A stretch of DNA of 64,000 nt, taken from contig CALMPF010000023.1 in assembly GCA_937871505.1 (NCBI GenBank), positions 471-64,470 on the forward strand, given 5' to 3'. A program made the translations under genes and the position numbers. This DNA is from an uncultured Planctomycetia bacterium (GTDB lineage: Bacteria; Planctomycetota; Phycisphaerae; Phycisphaerales; SM1A02). Of this stretch, positions 1 to 41,756 are shown one piece after another (position 1 is the first letter of the stretch; each line of letters begins with the position of its first letter). The notes under the pieces were generated by a model. The model saw only the letters and a program-made list of their open reading frames with translations, ran no database searches and was not told the origin of the DNA.

Positions 1-294
1 CCACGCTGCACGGACCGAGGGATGGGCAACGCGCGGAGGGCCTCGACGCGAAGCCGGCTGCGGAGAAGAGGCCGGAACTGGAAGCTGCGGTGCTCCGCGC
101 CACCGGCATCGATGCCCCTGATCGGGTGCGCGCAAAAGGCCCGCACTCAGGCCCGCACTCGGTGCGCGAAACGGGGGAATCTCGGCGCGACGCGGCGCGA
201 CGACCAGACCGACGACGGCGCTACCGCGACCAACCTGAAGCCATCGCGCGATGCGGAGTTGCGCGACGATGCGCGGCGTGGCGCGGCGTCCTGC

Positions 295-341
295 GGAAAT
301 GCCTCGTCAAGGACTCGAACCTTGAACCCGCTGATTAAGAG
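295..341. repeat. attL: partial copy of the tRNA-Lys 3' part
   Basis: GGAAATGCCTCGTCAAGGACTCGAACCTTGAACCCGCTGATTAAGAG is identical to 41679-41725. Identity stops at 342 (C versus T at 41726), so no complete tRNA is present here. Confidence 0.85.
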
Positions 342-608
342 CGCGCGCCATGCTGACTCTCAATCAGCGCCGGATGCACGGTTTGCGATCGCGGGGACGG
401 ACCCCCTTGCGCAAACCTTGCGCGACGACGACGAGGGTCGGACGCGGAGCGTGCCCTCGACCAGGTCGGGGCGCGAGGAGCCCGGGACCCGGTCGCACGC
501 CCGGGAGCGCGCCGACGCGGGTCACGAGCCTGATCTGGAGACGGCCATGCAGCGCGTGCTGGATCTCGCGCGGTCGCCCGAGGGCCGCGCGACGAGAGGG
601 GGTGCGGC

Positions 609-1088
609 GTGAGCGATCACCGCATCACCATCACCCCCGAGGCGTGCAGGCTCGCCGCCGCAGACGTCTGGCTGCGACTCAGCTACGTCGAGCTGATCGT
701 GCGCGGGATCGAGCCCGGACCCGATCGCGACATGATCCTGCGAGACCTCGTCGAGCCGATGGTCCGCTCGCTCGCGGAGTGGTGCTCCCAGTTCCGCGGC
801 CACGACGGACAGACGCGGGACCGCCACGAGGAGCATGTGCGGCGGCTCGCCGCGGCGATGGAGCGGCTCGGCGAGACCCCATCGGATGTCGTCGCCTGCG
901 ACCTCCGCGAGCTCGCCGGACGGCACCGCGTGACGCCCGAACAGCTCCTGATCGCAGCGGTCGCGCTCGACCCGGAGCGCGGTCTGGCGAGCGAGTCCGC
1001 CCTCCTCGACCTCGACGAGGGCGACGGCGCGAGGATCGCCGCGATGCTCCGCGAGCTCGCCGAGCGGCTCATGGAGGCGGCGCGATGA
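609..1088 (+). CDS. Hypothetical phage protein (159 aa)
   Basis: The ORF has balanced amino-acid composition and its stop overlaps the next start (ATGA at 1085). I recognised no family. Confidence 0.5.
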   Translation: MSDHRITITPEACRLAAADVWLRLSYVELIVRGIEPGPDRDMILRDLVEPMVRSLAEWCSQFRGHDGQTRDRHEEHVRRLAAAMERLGETPSDVVACDLRELAGRHRVTPEQLLIAAVALDPERGLASESALLDLDEGDGARIAAMLRELAERLMEAAR

Positions 1089-1465
1089 GCACCACGCACC
1101 GCACGCTCGACGAGGGTCGGCTCGAGGACATCAGGTCGATGCTGGTCTCCTCAGAGCTCTCCCGGTGGACGCTGCACATCCTGCTCTGCCGCGGAGTCCA
1201 GCCATGGGAGATCGTCGCGTGGCTCGAGCTGCACCAGGGCGTCAGCCGTGGCTGGATCTGGTGCACGCTCAGGTCGGCCGGCTGGCCAGTCGATCAGTGC
1301 GTCGCGGCGTTCAGGCTCGCGCGGTGGTCGGCGGATGAGGTCATCAGGGCCGCGCTGAGGCACCCGGCGAGGTCGATGGTCGGATGCGGATGGCGGCGCG
1401 GCGAGATGGCGGCGGCGCTCCGCGGGATCGCGGAGCGGCTCGAACGAGACCAGGAGGACCAGTGA
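1085..1465 (+). CDS. Hypothetical phage protein (126 aa)
   Basis: Internal ATG of ORF 350-1465 that overlaps the upstream stop. The product begins MSTTHRTLDEGRLEDIRS. The upstream part of the listed ORF is Arg/Pro-rich and looks like an artefact. Confidence 0.45.
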   Translation: MSTTHRTLDEGRLEDIRSMLVSSELSRWTLHILLCRGVQPWEIVAWLELHQGVSRGWIWCTLRSAGWPVDQCVAAFRLARWSADEVIRAALRHPARSMVGCGWRRGEMAAALRGIAERLERDQEDQ

Positions 1466-1695
1466 TGGCATGGAGTCCAGCACCCCAGGTGCAGGTGGCG
1501 CGAGACGCGGCCGACGCGATGGAGCGTGCCGCAGGCACGCGCATCGATCGATGCATCGTGCTCTACACGACCGCTGACGGCGCCCTCGGCTACGCGAGCT
1601 TCGGGCGCACGAGGGCGCTCTGCGCGTCAGCGCGCAAGGTCGCCGACGCCGCATACGAGCACGTGATGGAGCGGTGGGAGGAGATCGGGCCATGA
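1465..1695 (+). CDS. Hypothetical phage protein (76 aa)
   Basis: ATG at 1465 overlaps the upstream TGA (TGATG). The product begins MAWSPAPQVQVARDAADAMERAAG. Confidence 0.4.
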   Translation: MAWSPAPQVQVARDAADAMERAAGTRIDRCIVLYTTADGALGYASFGRTRALCASARKVADAAYEHVMERWEEIGP

Positions 1696-2177
1696 GCGCC
1701 GCACCGCCCAACCACAACCCGGCCCCGCAGCACTCGGCGCCGGTGGTCCAGATCCGTCCGACGCCAGCAGCAGGACCGCACACCATGACCCCAGAGCATC
1801 AGCATCTCCTCGAGCGCATCGCAGCCGCACTGGAGGAGCTTGCGCGGCCGTCGATCGTCCGTCGACCGACGGTGCAGCGATACGGCGCCGGGTGGGTCGC
1901 AGGCGACGACATCGACATCGGCGTCGTCGGCCATGGCCCGTCGCCACGCGGGGCGTGCGCCGCGTATGACACCGCCTTCCGCCGCAGTGCGGAAGGGGGT
2001 TCGGCAGTGCGCATGGGACTGGTCAAGCCAGTCCCGTGCCAAGCGTGCCTCAGCCTCGGTGATTCGGAGGCTGCTGCGGCCGTCCGTGTCCTACAGAGCA
2101 AGGGCATCACGCCAGATCAGGCGGCGGCGCTGATGAAGAGTGAAGCGGCGTGGAAGCGGGAAGGGGCCGAGCCATGA
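1692..2177 (+). CDS. Hypothetical phage protein (161 aa)
   Basis: ATGA overlap with the upstream stop at 1692-1695. I recognised no family. Confidence 0.4.
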   Translation: MSAAPPNHNPAPQHSAPVVQIRPTPAAGPHTMTPEHQHLLERIAAALEELARPSIVRRPTVQRYGAGWVAGDDIDIGVVGHGPSPRGACAAYDTAFRRSAEGGSAVRMGLVKPVPCQACLSLGDSEAAAAVRVLQSKGITPDQAAALMKSEAAWKREGAEP

Positions 2178-2782
2178 TGCACCCCCCGCACCCAACGCGG
2201 CTCGACCACTGGACGACGCCCGGTGTGACGTGGGCGTCGATCGACCCGTCGTCGACCCGCACCGGCGTCGCGATCTGGCGCCCACCGGACGCGGTCCCGT
2301 TGCTCGTCGCCCTCTGCGGCGGGTCTGCGAGTGATCCGTGCGTCCGCATCGACCGGATCGTCGAGCTGCTCGCGGACCTGATCCACCATCGACGCGTGCG
2401 CGGCGTGGTGATCGAGATCCCGAGCGGCCGCGTCGGCACCGGCGCCCGTGCAGGCGCCACCGGCCACCTCGCGATCTACGGCATGGCCGTAGGCGCGATC
2501 CGGCAGGCGTGCCTGTCGATGCTCGGAGGGGCGCAGGACCAGGTGATCTCCGTCGACGAGCGCACGTGGACGCGGCGGCGTCCGCAGCGCTCGAGGATCG
2601 CCCTCGCCCGCGCGATCGCGCCGGAGCTGGTCCACCGCTCCGACCCGGGCGGAGATCTCGCCGACGCCGTCGCGCTCGGCGCGTGGTGGAGCGATCAGTT
2701 GCCGCTGCTGGCCGCGATCAACATGGCGACGGACTCGCACGACGCCGGCATCGTGCGGCGCCGGAAGGGGGCTCGACGGTGA
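2174..2782 (+). CDS. RuvC-like Holliday junction resolvase
   Basis: WASIDPSSTRTGVA resembles the RuvC GIDPG..tG motif, VVIEIP carries an acidic residue, and GGDLADAVALGAWW resembles the DAADALAIA motif. The start overlaps the upstream stop (ATGA). Confidence 0.65.
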   Translation: MMHPPHPTRLDHWTTPGVTWASIDPSSTRTGVAIWRPPDAVPLLVALCGGSASDPCVRIDRIVELLADLIHHRRVRGVVIEIPSGRVGTGARAGATGHLAIYGMAVGAIRQACLSMLGGAQDQVISVDERTWTRRRPQRSRIALARAIAPELVHRSDPGGDLADAVALGAWWSDQLPLLAAINMATDSHDAGIVRRRKGARR

Positions 2783-3156
2783 TCGCTGCGCCGCGTCCGA
2801 TGAGGCCGATCGACATCGCGTCGGCAGCGATGCGGGTCGTCGGCATCCCGCAGGGAGAGATCGTCTCCAGATCGCGCCGGCCCGAACTCGTCCGTGCCCG
2901 CGAGCTGATCGCGGCTGCGGTCCGGACGCTGACTGATGCGTCGCTGCCCGAGATCGGGCGGCTGATGTGTCGGTACCACACGTCCGTCATGGTCATGGTG
3001 CGACGCTGGATGAGGCGACCGCCAGAGGACCGCGAGGAGCTCCTCCACCGCGTGATGCTCGAGACGCTGAGACCGTCGAGAGCGCGGTGGGTGGTGGTGA
3101 CGAGAGATCGCAGCGGCGGCAGCAGAGTGAGAGGAGGACATCGGTGGCACGGCTGA
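2779..3156 (+). CDS. DnaA domain IV-like helix-turn-helix protein
   Basis: GEIVSRSRRPELVRARELIAAAVRTLTDASLPEIGRLMCRYHTSVMVMVRRW resembles the DnaA C-terminal pattern (R...aR..amyl...t..Sl.eIG..f...HsTV). GTG start overlaps the upstream stop (GTGA). Confidence 0.5.
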   Translation: MIAAPRPMRPIDIASAAMRVVGIPQGEIVSRSRRPELVRARELIAAAVRTLTDASLPEIGRLMCRYHTSVMVMVRRWMRRPPEDREELLHRVMLETLRPSRARWVVVTRDRSGGSRVRGGHRWHG

Positions 3157-4298
3157 CAGACAGACTCTCGATGCTCGCATCGGCCAGCTTCTCGGCACTC
3201 ATGGATCGGCGCCGAGCGCGTGGTGCCACCACCGTGTCACCCGCCGTGACCAGGGCCGTCGTCTGGGCGCTCGTGCAGCACGCGGACACGTCGGGTGTGA
3301 GCTATCCGTCGATCGAGACGCTCGCCCGAGAGAGCGACAGCTCGACGCGATCGGCGAAGCGGGTGATCGCGGTGCTCCGCGAGGAGGGCATCGTGGTGGT
3401 GCGGCGGCGCAATCACGGCGCCGCCGCCGGCCGCAAGCTCGGTCAATCGATCGAGGGCGCGACGAACGTCTATCGGATCGACTGGGATGCCTTCGCGCGG
3501 CTGAGCGAGTCCGCGCCGACCACCGCAGGAACAGGGGCCAGCCCGACCCCTGAACATGGGCCAGGTGGGCCCTTGAACAGGGGCCAGCCTGTCCACGATC
3601 AGGGGCCAGCCTGTCCACGATCAGGGGCCAGCGTGGCCCCGAAACTGTCCAGTGAACCGTCCAGAGAACCCCCCCCAGCCCCCCGAGGGGGCGAAGGGGG
3701 GGGGGCGGAGGAGTCGATCATCGACGACGCCGAGCGACGGCCGGCTCCGTCGACCGATCGCCAGTGGGCGTCGGAGATCACGTCCCGCTACCCGCTGGTC
3801 GCGGGAGCGCTGCCGATGTCCGACGAGAACGCCGTCGTCGCGGCGATCGTCGCCGAGCGAGCGTGGCCGGACGGCGCGACGCCGAGCGAGATCGCTGCCG
3901 CGGTCGACGAGCTGCGCGTCCGCGTCGACCGCGGCGAACTGCGGCGGCCTGTGTGGCTGCGGAGGTGGTCGGCTGAGCGCGGGTACTGGCCGTTCGTCGC
4001 GGTCGCTCGCGAGGCTGCGGCTGCCGCGGCGTCGAGAGACGCGGTCGCTGTCGCCGGCAGGATCGGCGCAGCCGCGACAGCCGAGGCTGAGCGTGACCGG
4101 CTGGCTCGCGATCGAGCGGCGACCGAGGCAGAGCTCTCGGTGCTCACGGCCGCGGAGTACGCCGAGCTCGTCGGCAAGGTGCGAGCCGACGTGCCTGCCG
4201 CGGAGCGGTTGAGCGACCACGGCCCGATCATGCGATTGCTGGTCTCGGCGCGGATCCGGGAGCGGAGCGAGAGCCAGGTGGAGGTGGAGGCATGCTGA
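3144..4298 (+). CDS. Phage replication initiator-like HTH protein (contains iterons)
   Basis: YPSIETLARESDSSTRSAKRVIAVLREEGIVVVRRR is a typical winged-HTH of phage or plasmid replication proteins. GTG start follows GAGGAGGA. Tandem iterons lie inside the gene, as in lambda O. Confidence 0.55.
   Translation: MARLTDRLSMLASASFSALMDRRRARGATTVSPAVTRAVVWALVQHADTSGVSYPSIETLARESDSSTRSAKRVIAVLREEGIVVVRRRNHGAAAGRKLGQSIEGATNVYRIDWDAFARLSESAPTTAGTGASPTPEHGPGGPLNRGQPVHDQGPACPRSGASVAPKLSSEPSREPPPAPRGGEGGGAEESIIDDAERRPAPSTDRQWASEITSRYPLVAGALPMSDENAVVAAIVAERAWPDGATPSEIAAAVDELRVRVDRGELRRPVWLRRWSAERGYWPFVAVAREAAAAAASRDAVAVAGRIGAAATAEAERDRLARDRAATEAELSVLTAAEYAELVGKVRADVPAAERLSDHGPIMRLLVSARIRERSESQVEVEAC
3531..3633. 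repeat. Iteron cluster (putative phage origin) inside the initiator gene
   Basis: The motif CAGGGGCCAGC occurs four times (3532, 3578, 3600, 3622). Two of these are exact 22-bp tandem units, CAGGGGCCAGCCTGTCCACGAT, at 3578-3599 and 3600-3621. Confidence 0.5.
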
Positions 4299-4519
4299 CG
4301 CACGCTGAGCCAGGGGACGTCGTGCAGGTCGTCTCGCCGGTCGATGGCAGAGCTCGGCTCGCGATGCTGGTCGAGCGGCATCCTCGACCCCACCCGGAGC
4401 ACGGGCCTGGATGGATCATCCGCACCGCCCGGGAACCGGCGCGCGGCTGCGTCGAGACGTGGCTTGAGTGCCACCTGCGGTGGCCGCAGCGCGCGGCCGA
4501 GGAGTCCACACCATGCTGA
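4292..4519 (+). CDS. Hypothetical small protein (75 aa), coupled to the TnpB/Cas12-like gene
   Basis: There are ATGCTGA overlaps at both ends (4292 and 4513). I recognised no family. Confidence 0.45.
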   Translation: MLTHAEPGDVVQVVSPVDGRARLAMLVERHPRPHPEHGPGWIIRTAREPARGCVETWLECHLRWPQRAAEESTPC

Positions 4520-5775
4520 CCGTCACCAGTCGCTGCACGTGCTCGCGGTGTGCCGTCGAGCGCGACGGCAAGCCGGCCAAGGACGGCTCCGCCAAGCTGC
4601 CGCGCGGCTGGAAGCGGTGGTGCGACGCGCTCTGGTGCGACACCTGCTGGCGTCGCGGGTGGTCCATGAGGGCGGTGTCGATGCCGATTGCGTCGGCCGC
4701 ACGGGATGGCGAGCAGATCGAGCGCAGCGCGCTGCGCGATCTCATCCGGGCAGCCTGCCAGATGGCGTCGACCGCTGCGAACATCGTCATCCGCGAGTGT
4801 GTCGCGACGGACATCGTCAGGCTTCCGGGCATGGCCAAGCTGCCGCCGATGCCAGCGTTCCCGCCTGGCCCGACGGGCAAGGCATCGACGCACGTCTACC
4901 ACCGCGTCCGCGCCGCGCTGCCTGACCTCGACCCACAGAGCGTGACGAGCATCGTGCAGGCCGCGCAGCGGAAGTGGAGCGCGTCGCGGTTCGATGTCGT
5001 CTGGCGTCGCTCGGCGGCGCCGCCGTCCTACCGCGACGACATGCCGTGCCCGATCGCGGCTGCGGCGACGTCTGTCGCGATGGACGGAGATCGCGCCGTG
5101 GTGTCGATCAGGCTCGGGCGCAGCCGCGTCGCCTGCACCATGGTGCAGGGTGCCGAGTGGAGGCGTCAGCTCGCGACGCTGCGCCGGATCGCGTCCCGCG
5201 AGTGGCCCGGCGGAGAGGCATCGGTCTACCTGCGCGACGGCAGACCGATGATCAAGGTCTGTGCGTGGGTGCCAGTCTCGGCACCGCGAGAGACCGATGG
5301 CGTGCTCTCAGTGCGCACCTGCGGCGACCACATGCTCACCCTGACGGTCGGTCAGACGGTGCGCAGAGTCAACTGCGACCGCGATCGCCGGATGCTGGAG
5401 ACTCACGATCGTCGGCTCCAGCGCTGGAGCGACGACATGAAGCCGGAGGTCAGGCCACCGTCGATGGTCGCTGAGCACCTGCAGGAGGATCGCGAGATCG
5501 CGTGTCGCGCGCGGGCTCGCGTCGTCGACACGCTGACGCACACGCTGTCGTCGATCGTCGCGGGACTCGCTCGCCGCCGTCGCGTCGCGCGAGTGGTGTA
5601 CGACAACACCGACCGGACCTACATGTCTGGATCGTTCCCGTGGCACATGCTGGCTGAGCGGATCCGCCAGAAGGTCGCGGCGAACGGACAGGAGATGCTG
5701 ACCATCACGCCTGACGCGAGCACGAGGGTGGTGGCACCCCCTCAGGAGATGCTCGCGAGTGAGGCGGGACAATGA
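4513..5775 (+). CDS. Compact TnpB/Cas12-like protein (420 aa), apparently lacking the Zn-finger/RuvC-III segment; has an N-terminal CxxC...CxxC zinc ribbon
   Basis: The gene sits immediately upstream of the CRISPR array. By eye it is colinear with TnpB in five segments:
- MRAVSMPIAS..AANIVIREC (N-terminal strand plus helix).
- AAQRKWSASRFDVVWRRSAAPPSYRDDMPCPI (WED, PrFK-like).
- GVLSVRTCGDHMLTLTV (RuvC-I strand; Leu at the Asp position).
- RVARVVYDNTD (RuvC-II strand; Asp for Glu).
- SFPWHMLAERIRQKVAANGQEM.
The ORF ends about 20 aa after the last segment. The family call is an inference; that it is a real CDS is more secure. Confidence 0.5.
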   Translation: MLTVTSRCTCSRCAVERDGKPAKDGSAKLPRGWKRWCDALWCDTCWRRGWSMRAVSMPIASAARDGEQIERSALRDLIRAACQMASTAANIVIRECVATDIVRLPGMAKLPPMPAFPPGPTGKASTHVYHRVRAALPDLDPQSVTSIVQAAQRKWSASRFDVVWRRSAAPPSYRDDMPCPIAAAATSVAMDGDRAVVSIRLGRSRVACTMVQGAEWRRQLATLRRIASREWPGGEASVYLRDGRPMIKVCAWVPVSAPRETDGVLSVRTCGDHMLTLTVGQTVRRVNCDRDRRMLETHDRRLQRWSDDMKPEVRPPSMVAEHLQEDREIACRARARVVDTLTHTLSSIVAGLARRRRVARVVYDNTDRTYMSGSFPWHMLAERIRQKVAANGQEMLTITPDASTRVVAPPQEMLASEAGQ

Positions 5776-5885
5776 CTTGCGGCCACCACCAGGCCGAGTG
5801 CGAGGAGGGATCGGACGTTGACCGCCGATCACGCTCGCGGAATGCCGCGGAAGTGGCGGGGATATCTGGCCTTGCGCCAGCGGCC

Positions 5886-6403
5886 CCCGCGGTGCCTCGA
5901 TCGACGATCAGGGACTGTGGGTCCAGCAGCGGGTCACCAGCGCCGTCGCAGATCACCCCGCGGTGCCTCGATCGACGATCAGGGACTGTGGGGCGGGTAC
6001 CTACGGCACTGGCGACACCGCCGTCGACGCCCGCGGTGCCTCGATCGACGATCAGGGACTGTGGGGACCCGGCCAAGGCGCAGCTCAACACCTTCGTCGC
6101 CCCCGCGGTGCCTCGATCGACGATCAGGGACTGTGGGGGTGGCGACCGTCCCGAAGCTCGGCCAGGCGATGCGCCCCGCGGTGCCTCGATCGACGATCAG
6201 GGACTGTGGGGCTCGGGCCCCGACGCCCGCGGTGCCTCGATCAACGATCAGGACTGTGGGTTCGTGCCCTACGCCGAGATGTGCGCGACGCTCACCCCCG
6301 CGGTGCCTCGATCGACGATCAGGGACTGTGGGTGTGCAGGTCGCCGCGATGCTCGAAGCCGATGGCCCCCGCGGTGCCTCGATCGACGATCAGGGACTGT
6401 GGG
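5886..6403. CRISPR. CRISPR array, 8 repeats and 7 spacers, carried by the prophage
   Basis: The 36-bp repeat CCCGCGGTGCCTCGATCGACGATCAGGGACTGTGGG starts at 5886, 5957, 6030, 6102, 6175, 6226, 6297 and 6368. The copy at 6226 is 35 bp and degenerate. The spacers are unique, with lengths 35, 37, 36, 37, 15, 36 and 35 bp. Confidence 0.85.
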
Positions 6404-6458
6404 ACGAGCTTGCGAGCCTGTGCCATGGACGCCGTCATCGAGTCGACGGGAGGCTCCA

Positions 6459-6812
6459 GTGAGCACGCTGCGCCCGCGCAACCCAGTGCATCGCCTGCCG
6501 TCGTGGGCCGAGCTCCAATCGCTGCCGCCTGAGGCCTGGGACGGCCTCAGGCGCGTCCTGCTCGACCTGCGGAGCGAGGCCAACGAGCTCGCGGAGACCG
6601 CGTGGCGGCGGCGCAAGGGCCCGATGGCCGCCTACTGGCGGGCCGTCTCGACCTACGCCAGGCACCTGGCCGGCTGCTGCGTGCCCCCCCGCGGGTCCTC
6701 CCCGGGCCCTGATTCGCCCGCGACACCCAAGGGAACAGTCGCAAAACGAGACAGACTTTCTTTCGCGCGGCCAGTCCGATCCAACCCCCTTCCGGGACCA
6801 GAAACGCGATGA
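6459..6812 (+). CDS. Hypothetical protein (117 aa) downstream of the array
   Basis: GTG start follows GGGAGG, and the stop overlaps the ParB-methylase start (ATGA at 6809). The product begins STLRPRNPVHRLPSWAELQSLPPEAWDGLRRVLLDLRSEANELAETAW. Confidence 0.45.
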   Translation: MSTLRPRNPVHRLPSWAELQSLPPEAWDGLRRVLLDLRSEANELAETAWRRRKGPMAAYWRAVSTYARHLAGCCVPPRGSSPGPDSPATPKGTVAKRDRLSFARPVRSNPLPGPETR

Positions 6813-8167
6813 AGCTCGAACACAGAACTCTCGATTCCATCAGGCCCTACGAGCAGAACCCGCGGATCAACGACGCGGCGGTAGACGCTGTCGCCAGGTC
6901 GATCAGCGAGTTCGGCTTCCGCCAGCCGATCGTCGTCGACCCCGATGGGGTGATCATCGTCGGCCACGTCCGGTGGAAGGCCGCCCAGCGCCTCGGCCTC
7001 GAGCAGGTGCCGGTCCACGTCGCCAAGGACCTCTCGCCGGAGCGGGCGCGGGCCTACCGCATCGCCGACAACCAGACCGCCGACATCGCCGAGTGGGACG
7101 ACGAGGCCCTCACCGCGGAGCTGCTCGCCCTCAGAGACCTCGACGTCGATCTCGCCTCGCTGGGCTTCGACGAGGACGAGCTGGCGAGGCTCCTCGCCGG
7201 AGACCTCTCCCCCGGTGAGACCGACCCCGACGACATCCCCGCTCCGCCCGATGAGGCGACGACGCAGCCGGGAGACCTGTGGATCCTGGGCGACCACCGG
7301 CTCCTCTGCGGTGACAGCTCGAGCGCTGCCGACGTCGACCGGCTCCTCGCCGGCGATCCCATCCACCTGGTCAACACCGACCCGCCGTACAACGTGAAGG
7401 TCGAGCCGCGATCGAACAACGCGATCGCCGCCGGGCTCTCGTCGTTCAGCGCCGCGAAGCCGACCCATCACCAGTCGATGGACGTCGCGCGGCATCCCGA
7501 GAAGTCGAAGGCGACCCACCGCCAGCTCCGCGCGAAGGACCGTCCGCTCGCGAACGACTTCGTCACCGACGCCGCGTTCGACGATCTGCTCGACGCGTGG
7601 TTCGGCAACATCGCCCGAGTGCTCCTGCCCGGTCGCGGCTTCTACGTCTGGGGCGGCTACGCGAACCTCGGGAACTACCCGCCGTTCCTGCGGAAGCACG
7701 GGCTCTACTTCAGCCAGGGGATCGTGTGGGACAAGCAACACCCCGTCCTGACGCGCAAGGACTTCATGGGTGCCTTCGAGCTCGCGTTCTACGGCTGGCG
7801 CGAGGGCGCGGCCCATCTATTCCTCGGGCCGAACAACGCGACGGACCTCTGGCGAGTCAAGAAGGTGACCCCGCAGTCGATGGTCCACCTCACCGAGAAG
7901 CCCGTCGAGCTCGCGATCCGCGCGATGCAGTACTCGTCGCGGCCAGGCGAGAACGTGCTCGACCTCTTCGGCGGCAGCGGCTCGACGCTCATCGCTGCGG
8001 AGCAGACCGGGCGACGGGCGCGGCTGATGGAGCTCGACGCGCTCTACTGCGACGTGATCGTGCAGCGCTGGGAGCAGTTCACGGGCCGGAAGGCCAGCCG
8101 GATCTCCGCATCCGACCGCGACACAGCCCCGGCCGGTGCCGGGGCTGTGGAGGAAGCCGGGGCGTGA
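6809..8167 (+). CDS. ParB-like nuclease domain fused to a DNA methyltransferase (N6A/N4C type)
   Basis: The N-terminus (IRPYEQNPRINDAAVDAVARSISEFGFRQPIVV..GHVRWKAAQRLG) is a ParB/Srx fold. VNTDPPYN is the catalytic DPPY motif. LDLFGGSGSTLIAAEQTGR is the SAM-binding motif. Confidence 0.85.
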   Translation: MKLEHRTLDSIRPYEQNPRINDAAVDAVARSISEFGFRQPIVVDPDGVIIVGHVRWKAAQRLGLEQVPVHVAKDLSPERARAYRIADNQTADIAEWDDEALTAELLALRDLDVDLASLGFDEDELARLLAGDLSPGETDPDDIPAPPDEATTQPGDLWILGDHRLLCGDSSSAADVDRLLAGDPIHLVNTDPPYNVKVEPRSNNAIAAGLSSFSAAKPTHHQSMDVARHPEKSKATHRQLRAKDRPLANDFVTDAAFDDLLDAWFGNIARVLLPGRGFYVWGGYANLGNYPPFLRKHGLYFSQGIVWDKQHPVLTRKDFMGAFELAFYGWREGAAHLFLGPNNATDLWRVKKVTPQSMVHLTEKPVELAIRAMQYSSRPGENVLDLFGGSGSTLIAAEQTGRRARLMELDALYCDVIVQRWEQFTGRKASRISASDRDTAPAGAGAVEEAGA

Positions 8168-8186: not shown

Positions 8187-8492
8187 TCAGGCAGGCATCG
8201 CGTCGCTCGTGACCTCGGCGAGCGTCGTCGCAAGCATGTTGAACGGCCTGGTCAGCTCGATGATCGCGTGGTATTTGGCGATCGCCATCTCGAGCTCGTA
8301 CGCGGTCGCCTGGAGTACACCGCAGGGGTTCGGGGCCTCGCCCGCGGCGAGGCGTCGCTCCGCCTCGTCGAGCCGCCGACGGGCCTCGTCGATCGTGCTC
8401 TCGATCCGCTGTCGGTACTCCGCGGCCGTCAAGCTGAAGGACCGCTTCGCGTACGCGACATGCCAGGTCTGGGTCTCGGTGAGGATCTGCAT
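8187..8492 (-). CDS. Hypothetical small protein (101 aa)
   Basis: ATG at 8492 follows GGAGAC. The product begins MQILTETQTWHVAYAKRSF and is predicted helical. Leader copy A lies upstream. Confidence 0.5.
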   Translation of the reverse strand: MQILTETQTWHVAYAKRSFSLTAAEYRQRIESTIDEARRRLDEAERRLAAGEAPNPCGVLQATAYELEMAIAKYHAIIELTRPFNMLATTLAEVTSDAMPA

Positions 8493-8623
8493 CGTGGTCT
8501 CCGTGGTTCGAGGTGTCTCGCGTCCGTTCCCCGTCGTCGGGGATCCCCGTTCGCGTCGCCCACAACAGGGCATGGAATCGGCCCCGCAGCAAGCGGATCA
8601 GCCGAGAAAACATGGGTTTCTCG
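8493..8623 (-). promoter_or_regulatory. Conserved leader/promoter cassette, copy A
   Basis: About 130 nt nearly identical to 9142-9272. The core ACAACAGGGCATGGAATCGGCCCCGCAGCAAGCGGATC is shared with 10182-10275. The cassette ends at the SD and ATG of the downstream minus-strand gene. Confidence 0.55.
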
Positions 8624-10327: not shown

Positions 10328-10669
10328 ATGCACGCGATCGAGACACGACGGACCAGGTCGCCCATGGGCGCGGCCGCTGTCTCATCGCCACCGATGCAGC
10401 CACCCGAACCACGCGAAACGTCGCCGCCCAGGCAGGCCCCGATCGACCCTCGGGCGCTCGCGATCGATCAGCTGGCCACGTTGCTGACGCGCGCGGGCGG
10501 TGTGCGCGTCAGCGAGGCGATGATCGAGGCGGACGTGGCCGATGGCGCGCCGACGAACGCCGACGGAACGCTGCACCTGGTGCACTACTGCGCGTGGCTC
10601 GCCGCGGAGGTCTCGAGGCAGCAGGGAGGTGGGCGAGCCCATCGACCCGCGCCGCCTGAGACCGGTTGA
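10328..10669 (+). CDS. Terminase small subunit-like HTH protein (start uncertain)
   Basis: The gene lies directly upstream of TerL. IDQLATLLTRAGGVRVSEAMIEADVADGAPTNADGTLHLVHYCAWL resembles TerS/Nu1-like HTH regions. Alternative in-frame ATGs are at 10364 and 10394. Confidence 0.4.
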   Translation: MHAIETRRTRSPMGAAAVSSPPMQPPEPRETSPPRQAPIDPRALAIDQLATLLTRAGGVRVSEAMIEADVADGAPTNADGTLHLVHYCAWLAAEVSRQQGGGRAHRPAPPETG

Positions 10670-12962
10670 CTGCCTCCAGCTGCTGAACTCGACCCCGTTG
10701 GGCGAGGTGGTCAGCGAGAGGCAGTTGCTGCGCTGGCGGATGTCCGCCGGCACGGCGATCGCCGCGCCCGCGGATCCGACCAAGGTAGACGTCCTCCGCC
10801 TCACCGGATGGCTCGCTCGCCGCCGCGATCGATCGATCGAGGCAGCCAAGCGGAAGGGCCGCGCGCCTGCGGCCGCGCCGCCGCCTCACGCGAACGCCTA
10901 CGACGCGCATCGCGAGCGCATGCGCGCCCGCTTCGAGGCGCTCTCGAAGTCCGGCCGCGACATCGGCGAGCTGCCGCCTGTCCGCGACCCCGACCGGCGC
11001 GCTCGATGCGAGCGGGATCTGCGGCTGTTCTGCGAGACGTACATGCCGATGACGTTCACGCTCGCTTGGTCTCCAGACCACCTGGTCGTCATCCGCAAGA
11101 TCGAGCAGGCGGTGTTGGAGGGCGGGCTCTTCGCGATGGCCATGCCCCGCGGCTCGGGGAAGACCTCACTCTGCGAGGTCGCCTGCCTGTGGGCGATCGT
11201 GTACGGCCACCGCCAATTCGTGGCGCTCATCGGAGCCGAGAAGGACTCCGCGACCCAGTCACTCGACTCCGTGAAGACCGAGATCGCGAGCAACGATCTC
11301 CTCGCCGAGGACTTTCCGGAGGTCTGCTTCCCGGTTCAGTGCCTCGAGGGGATCCACCAGCGGGCGCCGGGACAGCTGTACCAGGGCCGTCAGACGCACA
11401 TCCACTGGACCGCCGACGAGCTCGTGCTGCCGACGATCGCAGGCGCGAAGTCCTCCGGCGCGATCATGCGCGTCGCCGGCATCACCGGCCGGATCCGCGG
11501 GATGAAGTACAAGAGGCAGGATGGCGTCAGCGTCCGCCCCGAGCTCGTCCTCGTCGACGACCCGCAGACCGACGAGTCCGCCCGCAGCCCATCGCAGTGC
11601 GCCACCAGAGAGCGCCTTGTCGCGGGCGCGATCCTCGGTCTCGCAGGACCCCGAAAGAAGATCGCCGGGCTGATGACGCTCACCGTCGTTGCCCGAGACG
11701 ACCTGGCCGATCGCCTGCTCGACTCGCAGCGCCACCCCCAGTGGCAGGGTGAGCGGATGCGGATGGTCTACGAGTTCCCGCACGACGAGAAGCTCTGGGC
11801 GCGCTACTCGGAGATCCGCGCCGAGGGACTGCGCGCCGAGAAGGGCCTCGAGCCGGCCACAGCGTTCTACAAGAAGCACCGAAAGAAGATGGACGCCGGG
11901 GCCAAGGTCGCCTGGGAAGCGCGGTTCAACCCGGACGAGGCGAGCGCCATCCAGCACGCGATGAACCTGCGGCTTCAGGACGAGCACGCGTTCTGGGCGG
12001 AGTACCAGAACGATCCGAAGCCGCTGCACGAGGAGGCAGCGCCCGACGTCGGCATCGAGGAGATCCTCGCGCGCACCAACGGCTACCGCCGGGGCGTCGT
12101 CCCTCGCTCGAGCTCGATCGTCACAGCCTTCATCGATGTGCAGGGGAAGCTGCTCTACTGGATGATCGTCGCGTGGGAGCAGGACTTCACGGGGCACCTC
12201 GTCGACTACGGCACCTTCCCCGAGCAGCGCGTGCCGTACTTCACGCTCCGCGACGCGAAGCGGACGCTCGCCTCGATCGCTCCCCGGGCCGGGCTCGAGG
12301 GGATGATCTTCGCGGGGCTCGAGGGCGCAGCCGCAGCGATCCTCGGCCGCGAGCTGCCTCGCGATGACGGAGGTGTGGCCCGCGTGTCACGCTGCCTCAT
12401 CGACGCGAACTGGGGTGCGTCGACCGAGGTCGTCTACCAGTTCTGCCGCCAGTCGCAGTACTCGGGCCAGCTCACTCCGAGCCACGGTCGATGGATCGGC
12501 GCCACCAGCCGGCAGATGGCGGAGTACGCCGCGAAGAAGGGCGATCGGGTCGGCTCGCACTGGCGCATGCCGGCGCCGACCGGCCGACGCGCGGTGCGGC
12601 ACGTGCTCTTCGACGCGAACTGGTGGAAGAGCTTCCTCGCCCAGCGCCTGTCGATCGGCATGGGCGATCGGGGAGGGCTCAGCATCTTCGGTGATTCAGC
12701 CGCCGCAGAATCCCACCGCATGCTCGCCGAGCATTGGACCTCCGAGCGCCGCACTCCCGTCGAGGCGCGCGGCAAGACGGTCGACGAGTGGAAGCTGCGG
12801 GCGCCCGGGATCGACAACCACTGGCTCGACACCGCTGTCGGCTGCGCTGTCGCGGCGTCGATGGAGGGGGCGGCGACGGCAGGCATGGCACCGCTGGCCC
12901 GGCGCCAGAAGCGCATCCGTCTCTCCGAGATCATCGCGGCCAGAAGGGCGATCACGCAATGA
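10629..12962 (+). CDS. terL: Terminase large subunit (GpA family)
   Basis: Walker A is AMPRGSGKTS and Walker B-like is ELVLVDDPQTDES. The nuclease-region motifs CLIDANWG and DNHWLDTAVGCAVAA are typical of lambda GpA-type terminases. The GTG start at 10629 is tentative. Confidence 0.85.
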   Translation: MGEPIDPRRLRPVDCLQLLNSTPLGEVVSERQLLRWRMSAGTAIAAPADPTKVDVLRLTGWLARRRDRSIEAAKRKGRAPAAAPPPHANAYDAHRERMRARFEALSKSGRDIGELPPVRDPDRRARCERDLRLFCETYMPMTFTLAWSPDHLVVIRKIEQAVLEGGLFAMAMPRGSGKTSLCEVACLWAIVYGHRQFVALIGAEKDSATQSLDSVKTEIASNDLLAEDFPEVCFPVQCLEGIHQRAPGQLYQGRQTHIHWTADELVLPTIAGAKSSGAIMRVAGITGRIRGMKYKRQDGVSVRPELVLVDDPQTDESARSPSQCATRERLVAGAILGLAGPRKKIAGLMTLTVVARDDLADRLLDSQRHPQWQGERMRMVYEFPHDEKLWARYSEIRAEGLRAEKGLEPATAFYKKHRKKMDAGAKVAWEARFNPDEASAIQHAMNLRLQDEHAFWAEYQNDPKPLHEEAAPDVGIEEILARTNGYRRGVVPRSSSIVTAFIDVQGKLLYWMIVAWEQDFTGHLVDYGTFPEQRVPYFTLRDAKRTLASIAPRAGLEGMIFAGLEGAAAAILGRELPRDDGGVARVSRCLIDANWGASTEVVYQFCRQSQYSGQLTPSHGRWIGATSRQMAEYAAKKGDRVGSHWRMPAPTGRRAVRHVLFDANWWKSFLAQRLSIGMGDRGGLSIFGDSAAAESHRMLAEHWTSERRTPVEARGKTVDEWKLRAPGIDNHWLDTAVGCAVAASMEGAATAGMAPLARRQKRIRLSEIIAARRAITQ

Positions 12963-21508: not shown

Positions 21509-23470
21509 ATGGCCCTCTCCGGCGCCATCCGTGCAGGACGTGCGTTCGTCGAGATCGGAGCGAGGTTGGGATCCTCGTTTCAACGCGGTCTCGCAGCCGC
21601 TCAGGCCCGCCTGAAGTCATTCGGCGCTGGCCTGCGCAACATCGGCGTAGGCATCACCGCAGGCGCTGGCGCTGTACTCGCACCGCTCACAGCCGCCGTG
21701 CTCCAGTTCGCTTCCGCAGGCGATGCACTCCAGAAGATGTCCGCGCGGACCGGCGCGAGCGCCGAGGCTCTCTCCGAGCTCGGCGTCGCGGCCCAGCTCT
21801 CCGGAACCTCGGTCGAGGTGATGGAGAAGGGCATCCGCACGATGCAGCGGACGATCGCCGAGGCGGCGAACGGCAGCGCGATGGCCGCGGATTCGCTCGC
21901 GCTGCTTGGGCTTTCGGCTGCGAAGCTCGCGGGGATGTCGCCCGACCGGCAGCTCGAGGCGATCGCTGACGGCTTGGCGGCGATCACCGACGACGCGCAG
22001 CGGACAGCGGCCGCGATGCGGGTCTTCGGGCGCAGCGGCGCCGAACTCATCCCCATGCTCTCTGGTGGCTCCGCGGGGATCGCCGCGATGCGCAAGCAGG
22101 CTCACGACCTCGGCCTGACCGTCTCGACCGAGACTGCCAACAGCGCGGCGCGACTCAATGACGCGCTCTTCCTCCTCTTCGCCACGGTCAAGAAGGTCAG
22201 CTTCGAGATCGGCGCTGCGCTCGCGCCTGCGGTCGAGAGGTTCGCCAAGGTGGCGGCGCCGATCGTCGCCAGCGTCATCAGGTGGGTGAAGGCGAATCAG
22301 CAGATCGTCGTTGCGGTGGCCAAGGTCACGCTCGTCGTCCTGGCTGCCGGCATCGCCATCACCGCTCTGGGGATCGCGATCGTCGGCCTGGGCGCCGTGC
22401 TCGGCGCTGCAGCGACCATCGTCGCGGCGCTTGGCGCGGCACTTGCGGCGATGGTCAGCCCGATCGGGCTTCTCATCATCGGTCTCGCAGGGCTGGTCAC
22501 ATGGCTGCTTCGGTTCACCAGCGTTGGCGTTCAGGCCGTGGAGTGGATCAAGGGCAGGTTCGCGTCACTCCTGCCCGCAGTGAACGCTGTCTGGACTGGC
22601 ATCCGCGATGCTCTCGCTGCTGGCGACCTTGGCTTGGCGATGGAGGTCGCGTGGGCCGCAGTCAAGCTCGCGTGGACCGCGGGAATTGGGTACCTCGAGG
22701 AGCGCTGGACTCAGTTCCGCGGGTGGATAACAACCGCGGTGATGGAGACGTGGGCTGGCATTCAGCTCTTCGGCGCATCCGTCTGGCACGCGTTTGAGAT
22801 CGCCGCTGTCGAGGCCATGGCCATGATCCGATCAGCGTGGGCGCAGACGGTCGCCGCGATGGCGAAGGCGGCGCGTCCACTCGTCGAGCTCACCACCGAG
22901 ATCCTTGCCCGGACAGGTGATCTGGTCGGTGCCGGCGACACGTTCAGGATGGGAGGAGCCGCGATCGCTGCGACTCTGCCGACGGGAGACCAGATCGACA
23001 CGCAGCTGGACGAGGACCGTGCACTGATCGAGGCCCGCCGACAACTGGGGCGAGGCGTGGCCGACGCGACGCTCAGCGGTCGCCAGAACGTGATCGGAAA
23101 CCGACTGGTGGAAGGCGACGCCGAGCGACGAGTGGCCCGCGACGCCACCATCGCCAAGAACGCCAAGGCCCTCGCCGATGCCCAGGCGAAGCTCCAGGAA
23201 GCGATTGCGGCCGCTGGCGCAGCGCGCAAGCAGTCCGATGACGACGCGAACGAGCGCGAGAAGCGGATCAAGCGGGCAACCGATGATGGCCTCGAGATCG
23301 GTGGCCAGACCTCGCGGGCTGAATCGCGCGGGACCTTCTCCGCGGCGGCGGCGCGCGGACTCGACTCGCCGAACACCGTCGGCCCGAAGCTCGACCGGAT
23401 GCTCGAGTTCCTGCGCACGATCGCCCGCAACACCGAGTCGGACGGACCTGTCCTGCAGGAGGGGGCCTGA
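21509..23470 (+). CDS. Tail tape measure protein
   Basis: AEALSELGVAAQLSGTSVEVMEKGIRTMQRTIAEAANGS..LGLSAAKLAGMSPDRQLEAIADGLAAI..RTAAAMRVFGRSGAELIPML is the typical tape measure N-terminal core. It is followed by transmembrane-like and coiled-coil segments. Confidence 0.85.
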   Translation: MALSGAIRAGRAFVEIGARLGSSFQRGLAAAQARLKSFGAGLRNIGVGITAGAGAVLAPLTAAVLQFASAGDALQKMSARTGASAEALSELGVAAQLSGTSVEVMEKGIRTMQRTIAEAANGSAMAADSLALLGLSAAKLAGMSPDRQLEAIADGLAAITDDAQRTAAAMRVFGRSGAELIPMLSGGSAGIAAMRKQAHDLGLTVSTETANSAARLNDALFLLFATVKKVSFEIGAALAPAVERFAKVAAPIVASVIRWVKANQQIVVAVAKVTLVVLAAGIAITALGIAIVGLGAVLGAAATIVAALGAALAAMVSPIGLLIIGLAGLVTWLLRFTSVGVQAVEWIKGRFASLLPAVNAVWTGIRDALAAGDLGLAMEVAWAAVKLAWTAGIGYLEERWTQFRGWITTAVMETWAGIQLFGASVWHAFEIAAVEAMAMIRSAWAQTVAAMAKAARPLVELTTEILARTGDLVGAGDTFRMGGAAIAATLPTGDQIDTQLDEDRALIEARRQLGRGVADATLSGRQNVIGNRLVEGDAERRVARDATIAKNAKALADAQAKLQEAIAAAGAARKQSDDDANEREKRIKRATDDGLEIGGQTSRAESRGTFSAAAARGLDSPNTVGPKLDRMLEFLRTIARNTESDGPVLQEGA

Positions 23471-35369: not shown

Positions 35370-36113
35370 ATGAGCCACGCATGCCACACGCCGACCACGA
35401 CTCCGACCCAGACAGACAGTCTCCGGAGGCACGCGACTGCCATCGGCGACGTGGTCGGCCTCGTGCGAGGCACGATCGGGGAGCTTCCCGGGCTGCCGCG
35501 CGCCGTGCGCGAGCAAGCAGACGGACTGGAGTACCCGCCAGTCCACGATGCGTGGCTGCACCTCACGCACGATGCGATGAGGCAGCTCCTCGCCGCGCTC
35601 GGTCAGGCGGCGCTCGAGGTCGCGTGTGCGGCCGACCGGTGGGCCGCCAAGCAGGTCATGGGCCGCACCTCGGGCCGCAGACCCGAGGTGTACCTCGACG
35701 CTGCCATCTGGGCTGCCTGCCGTGCCGCCGTCGGGGCCGTCCGCGCCGCGGTGGACGGCCCCGACGGCGCCGCAGACGAGCACATCGCAGCCTGCGGCGC
35801 CCACGCGCGGCGAGCCCATGAGCTCGCCGCAGAGGCGGTCATCGTCACGCGACACGCAGGTCTCGTCGACTGGCTGAGGCGGCTGGGCATCACCGGGCGA
35901 GTGATCGCGCACGCGACGCTCGACGATGTCCGTGGCCGCAGGGTGATCGGCCCCCTCCCACTCCATTTGGCCGCACACGCGTCGCTCGTCGGCGCGATCG
36001 ACATGCCGCTCATCACTGCGGAGTCGAGGGGCCGAGACCTCTCGCCCGAAGAAATGGACAGAGCCGGCGCCGTGCTGCACTGGTACACGGTGCGGCCGGT
36101 CGCCGGCGACTGA
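35370..36113 (+). CDS. Protein with a C-terminal Csx16 (Cas_VVA1548)-like domain
   Basis: The C-terminal ~90 aa read VIVTRHAGLVDWLRRLGITGRVIAHATLDDVRGRRVIGPLPLHLAAHASLVGAIDMPLITAESRGRDLSPEEMDRAGAVLHWYTVR. This matches my recollection of the Csx16 consensus (TRHpGA..Wl....H......GD.ViG.LP..LAa........L.l....RG.EL..ee....ga.l..y.V). Confidence 0.45.
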   Translation: MSHACHTPTTTPTQTDSLRRHATAIGDVVGLVRGTIGELPGLPRAVREQADGLEYPPVHDAWLHLTHDAMRQLLAALGQAALEVACAADRWAAKQVMGRTSGRRPEVYLDAAIWAACRAAVGAVRAAVDGPDGAADEHIAACGAHARRAHELAAEAVIVTRHAGLVDWLRRLGITGRVIAHATLDDVRGRRVIGPLPLHLAAHASLVGAIDMPLITAESRGRDLSPEEMDRAGAVLHWYTVRPVAGD

Positions 36114-36173: not shown

Positions 36174-36245
36174 GGCGGGGTAGAGCAGGAGCAGCTCGCC
36201 GGTCTCATACGCCGGAGGTCGCTGGTGCGAATCCAGCCCCCGCTA
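36174..36245 (+). tRNA. Prophage-encoded tRNA-Met(CAT)-like gene (non-canonical T-loop)
   Basis: The sequence is GGCGGGG TA GAGC AGGAGCA GCTC G CCGGT CTCATAC GCCGG AGGTC GCTGG TGCGAAT CCAGC CCCCGCT A. It folds into a full cloverleaf with anticodon CAT. The T-loop reads TGCGAAT (G at position 55). No CCA is encoded. Confidence 0.55.
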
Positions 36246-36293
36246 CTGGCTCGGCTGCGGCGCCCGAGGTCGGCGCCGTGGCCGGGGCGCTCG

Positions 36294-39945: not shown

Positions 39946-40256
39946 ATGATCGACCAGCCTCCACCAGCCCCCGAAGCCGGGCCCGACTCGCCTCAGGCGA
40001 CGGCGCCAAGGCCACCGATGCTCGGCGCCGAGCAGTTCGCCCGGCGCCTCGGCGTCTCGCGCTCCACTGTCTACCGGCTGCGCAACCGGGGCGCGCTGCC
40101 CGACCCTCACATCGCATCCGGCCGGGTCATCCGCTGGAGCTCGGTCATCGTCGAGCGCTGGATCGATGCTGGCTGCCCGATCCGAGACGAGTGGGAGAAG
40201 ATGCCCGGCGCTGCGATGCCGGCGGCGCCTCGCGCGAAGAAGGGCGGTCGTCGACG

Positions 40257-40260
<4 letters not shown>
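39946..40260 (+). CDS. xis: Excisionase / AlpA-family HTH protein
   Basis: LGAEQFARRLGVSRSTVYRLRNRGALPDPHIASGRVIRWSSVIVERWI matches the AlpA/HTH_17 pattern. The gene lies directly upstream of the integrase, with a GTGA overlap. Confidence 0.75.

Positions 40261-41756
<1,496 letters not shown>

Follow-up and report, generated by a model that had tools for sequence, protein, structure and literature searches.

A phage-borne CRISPR module predicted to combine a truncated Cas12f homologue, a tracr-like RNA and a multi-spacer array

The 64-kb stretch analysed here (contig CALMPF010000023.1 of an uncultured Planctomycetia bacterium of the Phycisphaerales, Planctomycetota, the whole of which is called the window) carries within an integrated temperate phage a gene for a 420-aa protein, the effector, followed by a CRISPR array. 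The locus is predicted to be a self-contained, phage-borne CRISPR module derived from type V-F, consisting of a truncated Cas12f, a structured RNA resembling a trans-activating CRISPR RNA (tracrRNA) and a multi-spacer array. Its ribonucleoprotein (RNP) probably binds DNA without cutting it and silences its targets, with conflict with other mobile elements as the likeliest use. The original prediction for this locus, a nuclease-dead RNA-guided DNA-binding module, is supported by the fold, the truncation, the non-conserved catalytic positions and the recurrent association with CRISPR arrays. Its claim of a novel type V combination was too strong, since nuclease-dead Cas12f proteins (dCas12f) lacking RuvC-III have been published, including an array-adjacent cluster. 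The parts of the locus, in window positions, are as follows.

4292-4519, + strand: upstream open reading frame (ORF) of 75 aa, whose stop overlaps the effector start codon (ATGCTGA); operon context only
4513-5775, + strand: effector gene; its 420-aa product derives from Cas12f, has a WED-REC-RuvC (I, II) core and lacks the TNB zinc finger and RuvC-III; predicted nuclease-dead
4513-4659, + strand: region encoding the N-terminal zinc ribbon (aa 1-49; C10, C13, C42 and C45; LPxGWK motif), preceding the first WED strand
5767-5885, + strand: putative structured, tracrRNA-like non-coding RNA between gene and array; it may start inside the 3' end of the gene, with CGCTCGCG at 5748-5762
5780-5796, + strand: hairpin H1 of this RNA, with loop CCAC (5786-5789) complementary to the repeat 3' end GUGG (first copy 5917-5920)
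5856-5861, + strand: anti-repeat GCGGGG, able to pair with CCCCGC at the repeat 5' end (helix 5)
5886-6403, + strand: CRISPR array with 8 hairpin-capable repeats of 36 nt and 7 spacers
6211-6260, + strand: decayed array unit, comprising a 15-nt spacer remnant (6211-6225) and a degenerate repeat (6226-6260)

The effector is a Cas12f homologue truncated before RuvC-III

Searches of Pfam, NCBIfam and PHROGs with the effector as a single sequence gave no match, and the identical product in the Phycisphaerales metagenome-assembled genome GCA_035327805.1 (PKC43_06365, contig DAOLCN010000010.1) is annotated by NCBI as a 'hypothetical protein'. The homology to Cas12f is visible only through a family profile, the PADLOC model or a structure model. 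The PADLOC Cas12f model matched residues 70-239 with an expectation value (E) of 1.8e-7, and the family profile searched against the PDB matched OsCas12f (9nzq, E 1.4e-15), AsCas12f (8j12/7wju, E 7e-13), SpCas12f1 (9i8y, E 9e-12) and a 'nuclease-deactivated Cas12f' (9n9c, E 1.8e-11). TnpB-type chains were matched far more weakly, from E 5e-5 for 9nzp, which is deposited as TnpB and titled RhCas12f, to E 0.45 for 8iaz (ISFba1 TnpB). The AlphaFold2 monomer model, built with 127 family sequences, reached a predicted local distance difference test (pLDDT) score of 94.5 and a predicted TM-score (pTM) of 0.81. All of its top 22 Foldseek matches in the PDB were Cas12f or dCas12f (E 5e-19 to 1e-11), the best being AsCas12f, SpCas12f1 and dCas12f (8j12_A, E 5e-19; 9n9c_A, E 9e-17), followed by TnpB (E 1.6e-10) and Cas12m (E 1e-7 to 2e-6, TM-scores 0.23-0.29). 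The effector is a Cas12f homologue, nearer to Cas12f than to TnpB. The PADLOC, profile and structure comparisons all place it in the Cas12f/TnpB fold, as had been proposed from by-eye colinearity with TnpB/Cas12f-type proteins, and dispose of the objection that a RuvC/TnpB-like fold might be absent.

In the model, the zinc ribbon (aa 1-49) is followed by WED, REC, RuvC-type strands beta1-3 with helices, and a low-confidence tail; the RuvC part includes beta4 (360-364), a helix (377-390) and beta5 (394-398). The chain ends just past strand 394-398, after the helix downstream of RuvC-II, in agreement with the earlier description of a protein lacking the zinc finger and RuvC-III. The active OsCas12f extends for another ~60 residues beyond this end, comprising the TNB zinc finger and RuvC-III, whereas the alignment with dCas12f 9n9c reaches residue 362 of 365, within 3 residues of its C-terminus, showing that the two proteins are truncated at the same point. 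By profile alignment, the RuvC-I Asp position is occupied by Arg268 (of 'SVRT') and not by Leu as previously read, and the RuvC-II Glu position by Asp364, where Asp had been correctly assigned. The alignments with solved Cas12f and dCas12f chains set in only around query residues 51-67, and the N-terminal CxxC...CxxC zinc ribbon, itself noted in the original prediction, therefore has no counterpart in them.

The truncation is shared by a large family

An exhaustive profile search over 1.84 billion cluster representatives (50% identity) yielded 1232 relatives at a cut-off of E 1e-3, of which 624 clusters remained at E 1e-30; the 150 top-scoring relatives align end to end and are almost all 390-450 aa long. 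Pfam, NCBIfam and PHROGs thus miss a family of at least 624 clusters, so that its genes are labelled 'hypothetical' and the systems are overlooked. No relatives were found in a search of genome contigs; the homologues, 24-50% identical, were drawn from contigs of metagenomes and from viral contigs in IMG/VR.

The family was examined in 156 sequences, made up of the top matches of the 50%-identity representative search and further homologues. Neither the C-terminal double CxxC (zinc finger) nor RuvC-III is present in any of the 156, in which a median of 41 residues follows the conserved FPW motif, and this argues that the truncation is an ancestral family trait rather than the product of a frameshift. 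A frameshift hiding RuvC-III, which would restore a full D-E-D nuclease, was considered and ruled out, as the members all end alike and the DNA downstream of the gene is occupied by the conserved RNA and the array. Among 127 members, 69 have R, 14 have T and 12 have K at the RuvC-I position, with S also present and D outside the five commonest residues; at the RuvC-II position, 90 have D, 11 have N and 5 have E. An active D-E-D nuclease in this family is very unlikely on these alignments. The zinc-ribbon Cys residues are conserved in 89-94% of the same 127 members, with P30, G32 and W33 nearly invariant.

The array belongs to the element and is not a dispersed repeat

The array lies in a window of ~70% GC and consists of seven perfect 36-nt repeats (CCCGCGGTGCCTCGATCGACGATCAGGGACTGTGGG), starting at 5886, 5957, 6030, 6102, 6175, 6297 and 6368, and the degenerate copy at 6226-6260, in which one G is replaced by A and one nucleotide is deleted. 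The spacers are all unique; six measure 35-37 nt, and the seventh is the 15-nt remnant. The count of eight repeats with seven unique spacers given earlier therefore stands, with the amendment that one repeat is degenerate and one spacer a remnant; the first repeat starts at 5886, after a gap of 110 nt from the gene stop at 5775. Also as described before, the effector ATG at 4513 overlaps the stop of the ORF at 4292-4519.

No extra copy of the CCCGCGGTGCCTCGATCGACGATCAGGGACTGTGGG repeat was found elsewhere in the 64 kb (chance expectation 0), nor any copy in 185,579 GTDB species genomes or the JGI metagenome collection. The repeats hence form a true array, and no host system sharing the repeat was identified. 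A dispersed element of the repetitive extragenic palindromic (REP) type, raised in the original prediction as a way in which it could fail, was ruled out, as all window copies are confined to 5886-6403. The G-U pairs of the repeat hairpins are valid on the + (gene) strand only, suggesting that the array is probably transcribed codirectionally with the effector gene. An ORF of 346 aa at 5772-6812 (+), listed among the genes of the ENA assembly (L005 11260-12300), spans the scaffold RNA and the entire array and was rejected as an annotation artefact, namely a translated CRISPR array.

A tracr-like RNA would contact both ends of the repeat

The interval between gene and array is conserved much better than the proteins are. 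A consensus structure was derived from an alignment of 11 loci (A4), in which 91% of the cells are paired compared with 36-45% when the partners are slid; compensatory changes occur in 18 of the 26 pairs, and none of 500 shuffles attained the observed values. The four core pairs between the H1 loop and the repeat 3' end are formed in all 11 loci, each with compensatory changes (for example CCGU:ACGG, CUGC:GCAG, CCGA:UCGG and UCGC:GCGA), and were equalled in 0 of 500 shuffles and in 0 slid controls. This contact is predicted to be a pseudoknot or a second anti-repeat contact. The anti-repeat also covaries with the repeat 5' end, as GCAGGG:CCCTGC in L014, GAGAGG:CCTCTC in L019 and GCGAGG:CCTCGC in L021.

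The covariance model R1 has a single match in the window (5767-5893, E 3e-25) and also matches directly 3' of the gene in L007, L017, L020 and L011, which were not used for training; no Rfam family matches the scaffold RNA. Folding of the single sequence gave z = -0.15, in a sequence of 70% GC. The putative scaffold RNA of ~120-150 nt would contact both repeat ends and resemble a Cas12f tracrRNA or the pseudoknot of TnpB omega-RNA. Two-ended contact between RNA and repeat is the logic of tracrRNA:crRNA pairing in Cas12f, and likewise that of the pseudoknot next to the guide in TnpB and Cas12f guide RNAs.

The motif CGCTCGC(G/A)GAA occurs twice, ~85 nt apart, once at the 3' end of the effector gene (5748-5762) and once inside the scaffold RNA (5832-5850), at the same positions in all aligned loci (A4 columns 34-48 and 140-158). 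Its gene-end copy encodes a recurrent C-terminal 'PLAE' peptide, and since the motif is repeated inside the RNA, conservation of this tail may reflect a constraint at the RNA or DNA level rather than protein function.

Gene, RNA and array recur as a unit with locus-specific spacers

The order gene-RNA-array was found in 11 independent loci, 7 of which are IMG/VR viral contigs, with locus-specific repeats. The array starts 110-200 nt past the gene stop in 9 of the 11 loci and ~920 nt past it in L019, and is decayed in L001, where only 2-3 decayed repeats are left. Arrays lie 3' of the homologues in L002, L003, L012, L014, L015, L016, L018, L019 and L021. The 36-nt repeats differ among loci and have a hairpin design in common (5' CCCGC...GCGGG 3').

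An all-against-all comparison of the neighbouring ORFs in 19 loci showed no shared protein family except terminase, and the lack of a conserved protein partner indicates that gene, RNA and array form a portable unit. The 75-aa upstream ORF, which has no Pfam, PHROG or PADLOC match, was dropped as a candidate partner, as the small ORFs that lie upstream of the homologues share no conserved sequence with it. A sigma gene adjacent to the effector was found neither in the window nor in the 18 other loci. Locus L004, which includes host sequence left of the window (1-4084), holds an extracytoplasmic function (ECF) sigma gene ~6 kb upstream, in the host flank and on the opposite strand; it is part of an ECF sigma/cupin anti-sigma pair, next to a resistance-nodulation-division (RND) efflux pump (ACR_tran and adaptor), directly beyond the prophage boundary. 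The adjacency of RND efflux genes looks coincidental, since no window spacer matches the L004 flank.

Spacers in arrays of the family are 34-41 nt long, with up to 8 unrelated spacers per array and none common to related phages. Two pairs of variant spacers occur, L014 s2/s4 (identical at 36 of 39 nt) and L019 s1/s4 (~75% identical), suggesting either that diverging targets were sampled repeatedly or that a spacer was duplicated and then drifted. A search with the window array and ~55 spacers of related arrays gave no match in the 64-kb window, in 5.5 kb of the L004 host flank or in the related loci (24 loci).

The relative P0007 (398 aa) in L008 and L009 has no regular array. Several diverged copies of the scaffold RNA are located around its gene instead (L008 23-152 on the - strand, 2738-2859, 6318-6466 and 8402-8531; L009 1737-1885 and 3821-3950), and irregularly spaced 'TCGTCACGG' motifs follow downstream. 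This arrangement may represent a stage between arrays and guide RNAs that stand alone, comparable to what has been proposed for the lineage of dCas12f that recruits sigma-E (dCas12f-sigmaE).

Proposed function and alternative explanations

By analogy with Cas12f, which acts as an asymmetric homodimer on one guide RNA, the effector, probably as a dimer, would bind the tracr-like RNA paired with repeat-spacer units. The RNP would then form R-loops on complementary DNA without cleavage, and the bound complexes would act as roadblocks obstructing transcription or replication of the target, as in Cas12m, type IV-A and TldR systems. The likeliest targets would be rival phages or further mobile elements within the same host, in superinfection exclusion or inter-element conflict, because the spacers are unrelated, differ among related phages and match neither the carrier nor the sampled flanks. 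New spacers would presumably be supplied by the host adaptation machinery.

Several observations weigh against silencing of mobile elements by a dead effector. No convincing protospacer was found for any window spacer: the comparison with viromes and host sequence proposed in the original prediction yielded no credible candidate in IMG/VR, GenBank phages, PLSDB, the window or the flank, where the 22-nt cores of spacers 1, 2, 3, 4, 6 and 7 had no exact match in IMG/VR and a BLAST comparison of the array with GenBank phages and PLSDB plasmids returned chance-level matches only. The sole database match to any window spacer came from one metagenome scan, a 24-nt exact match of spacer 1, possibly due to chance, to a 4.2-kb metagenome contig (L025, contig ERZ724522 NODE-6905, 2782-2805, - strand). 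It covers nt 3-26 of the spacer, omitting the first two (seed-proximal) and the last nine nucleotides, and falls inside an ORF without annotation on the + strand (2218-2919), after which comes an ORF for a P-loop ATPase; the site may be a diverged protospacer or a chance match. The search for host targets was confined to the 64 kb and the 5.5 kb L004 flank, which leaves room for targeting of host genes. Furthermore, the array shows decay in one repeat and one spacer, and scans for sigma-70 promoters and terminators were empty, scans which may not suit Planctomycetota. Finally, the motif D308-x-K-x-E-x-R is nearly invariant (D308, K310, E312 and R314 conserved in 91-98% of 127 members), and a rearranged catalytic centre at this site is judged unlikely.

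The module could instead be a dedicated RNA-guided regulator, its spacers aiming the dead effector at promoters of the host or of the phage itself and thereby acting on host physiology or lysis-lysogeny. This explanation is considered unlikely, though it is the strongest of the rivals. A role as transcription factors is documented for nuclease-dead relatives of TnpB and Cas12f, some of which prophages encode (PMC10705468, PMC13472631), the effector gene sits within the early/replication operon, the scattered scaffold-RNA copies of L008 and L009 in place of a regular array are reminiscent of fixed single guides, and the spacer search covered a small part of the host genome. However, no spacer matched the window, the L004 flank or any related locus, and up to eight unrelated spacers of variable length, unshared among related phages, are the pattern of acquired immunity and not that of conserved guides for regulation.

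That the effector is still a nuclease, its missing RuvC-III carboxylate being supplied by a rearranged site (D308/E312), the dimer partner or a host or phage protein in trans, is improbable. Rearrangements of the catalytic site are known in TnpB and Cas12 (PMC10691335), the residues of the D308 motif are 91-98% conserved, Asp occupies the RuvC-II position in 90 of 127 members, and an HNH gene lies upstream in L008 and L009. Against this, acidic residues are essentially never seen at the RuvC-I position (R, T, K or S), the RuvC-II position varies, every family member lacks the RuvC-III helix and the TNB domain, no protein partner is conserved among loci, and the structurally equivalent truncated dCas12f has been described as nuclease-dead (PMC13472631). 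An anti-CRISPR decoy that sequesters guide RNAs of a host Cas12f or adaptation factors, or a decaying remnant, is the least credible explanation: the degenerate repeat and spacer of the window, the 2-3 decayed repeats of L001 and the Cas-derived inhibitors and solitary repeats known in phages (PMC11656645) speak for it, but more than 600 diverged clusters keep full-length conservation and a dedicated zinc ribbon, the repeat was not found in GTDB species-representative genomes or JGI metagenomes, and the scaffold RNA co-evolves with the repeat of each locus through compensatory changes that imply selection for a working RNP.

Binding without cleavage in conflict between mobile elements is accordingly preferred among these explanations. 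Tentatively, and with less confidence than is placed in the silencing function itself, the family may constitute a large unnamed, phage-specific type V subtype, in which a zinc-ribbon dCas12f of ~420 aa with its own tracrRNA and multi-spacer arrays would carry out cleavage-free adaptive interference, a natural form of CRISPR interference (CRISPRi), among phages or other mobile elements, with host adaptation machinery borrowed to renew the spacers; its origin may be independent of the dCas12f-sigmaE of Bacteroidota. If so, temperate phages of little-studied phyla would widely use a programmable, heritable silencer of 420 aa that does not cut DNA, binding-only CRISPR interference as in Cas12m, type IV, TldR and dCas12f would extend to a large viral family, and it would become a sharper question how arrays lacking cas1 and cas2 acquire spacers. 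A naturally dead effector of very small size, with its defined tracr:repeat architecture, is also a candidate chassis for compact CRISPRi or base editors.

Prophage context and other features of the window

The module lies in the following element, which also encodes portal, capsid, cement and tail tube proteins and is followed by host genes, secA first.

1-41756, no strand assigned: integrated temperate phage with replication, packaging, structural and integration genes
2967-4298: HTH_36 replication-initiator-like gene
6809-8167: ParB-methylase gene (ParB-N6/N4 methylase)
10542-12962: large terminase gene (GpA_nuclease)
21509-23470: tape measure gene
39946-40260: excisionase-like gene (HTH_17)
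40191-41750: integrase gene, abutting tRNA-Lys (41684-41756)

Cas1, Cas2, Cas4 or another effector were detected neither among the Pfam hits within 10 kb on either side of the effector gene nor among ~48 further window ORFs, consistent with the earlier statement that the 64 kb holds none of them, as far as Pfam scans of called ORFs extend. Likewise, tnsB, tnsC and tniQ, as in Cas12k and CRISPR-associated transposons, were absent from the window Pfam hits, and IS200/IS605 tnpA from the Pfam hits of the scanned window ORFs.

The sole other CRISPR-linked domain found is located inside the element in the ORF at 35370-36110 (+), upstream of tRNA-Met (36174-36246). The C-terminal 85 residues of its 247-aa product match Csx16/Cas_VVA1548 (Pfam E 3.7e-16; PADLOC E 4.7e-15). 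In type III systems, Csx16 domains occur alongside CARF proteins, and speculatively the phage protein could be a counter-defence factor such as a ring nuclease. Within the HTH_36 ORF, ~5 copies of a partly palindromic 22-nt tandem repeat (GAACAGGGGCCAGCCTGTCCAC) at 3529-3643 may represent iterons or the prophage origin. Six 120-nt tandem repeats at 62797-63522, in the ORF at 62442-63986 (-), encode TPR repeats (TPR_12, E 4.5e-36) of a host protein.

Comparison with known systems

Cas12f homologues that have lost RuvC-III by C-terminal truncation were described by Altae-Tran et al. 2023 as 'Sigma-TnpB' (PMC10691335) and by Hoffmann et al. 2026 (PMC13472631). In the latter work, dCas12f of Bacteroidota binds DNA under RNA guidance and recruits sigma-E (PDB 9N9C); a smaller, distinct dCas12f cluster beside CRISPR arrays, with a covarying RNA upstream, was proposed to comprise repressors (Extended Data Fig. 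1a,b), and some guides of array-linked dCas12f target RND efflux promoters. C-terminally truncated, CRISPR-associated dCas12f is therefore already published, and the present system is a related variant in a large family missed by annotation.

The Cas12f fold, the truncation point at TNB/RuvC-III, the loss of catalytic residues and an RNA upstream of the guides are common to dCas12f-sigmaE and the present system. dCas12f-sigmaE is accompanied by an operonic rpoE, encoding sigma-E with an extension of its C-terminal domain, and usually by a helix-turn-helix gene, neither of which is found at the present locus. It uses chimeric single guide RNAs with 14-16-nt guides and has no tracrRNA or regular array, in contrast to the regular multi-spacer array and separate tracr-like RNA described here, and the present family has an additional N-terminal zinc ribbon and resides in (pro)phages of hosts outside Bacteroidota. 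The family profile scores active Cas12f (1e-15) above 9n9c (2e-11), so that RuvC-III may have been lost independently of dCas12f-sigmaE. The array-linked dCas12f cluster of Hoffmann et al. shares the truncation, the adjacent arrays and the covarying upstream RNA, as compared by description only.

Type V-F Cas12f1 proteins (AsCas12f 8J12/7WJU, SpCas12f1 9I8Y, OsCas12f 9NZQ and Un1Cas12f1 7C7L) are the best sequence and structure matches. They have in common with the present system the miniature size, a repeat-pairing tracrRNA, a guide-adjacent contact of the pseudoknot type and repeats of ~36 nt. Different from the present effector, Cas12f1 has the D-E-D triad, the TNB zinc finger and RuvC-III, and V-F1 loci commonly carry cas1/cas2/cas4, whereas the present locus lacks these genes, is phage-borne and adds an N-terminal zinc ribbon to the effector.

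Cas12m (V-M) and type IV-A systems are alike in interfering by binding rather than cutting, in residing on mobile elements, frequently in the absence of adaptation genes, and in serving inter-element conflict. Cas12m is a protein of ~600 aa that retains a complete RuvC fold for crRNA processing and works independently of tracrRNA, unlike the truncated 420-aa protein reported here, and type IV is a multi-subunit class 1 system as opposed to a single effector. Many phage type V families were reportedly listed by Al-Shayeb et al. in 2022. TldR (Wiegand et al., PMC10705468) is likewise a miniature RNA-guided binder of the TnpB/Cas12 lineage with an inactivated or truncated RuvC, encoded in some cases on prophages, but it is a direct TnpB derivative with a single omega-RNA that overlaps the 3' end of the gene and is aimed at a fixed host promoter, and with no CRISPR array, and the present protein is nearer to Cas12f.

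The Cas12r-CRISPR system of Thermus Lalka phages (bioRxiv 10.64898/2026.04.20.719267) is also a phage-borne single-effector type V system with a short array, no adaptation genes and integration at a tRNA gene. It targets rival integrative elements, and its authors propose inter-element conflict and host-dependent uptake of spacers. Cas12r itself is an active RuvC nuclease of 564 aa (D238A abolishes interference) with no tracrRNA and 29-nt repeats, and belongs to a different TnpB branch. Cas12m, type IV-A, TldR and Cas12r are thus functional analogues of the present module, not its relatives.

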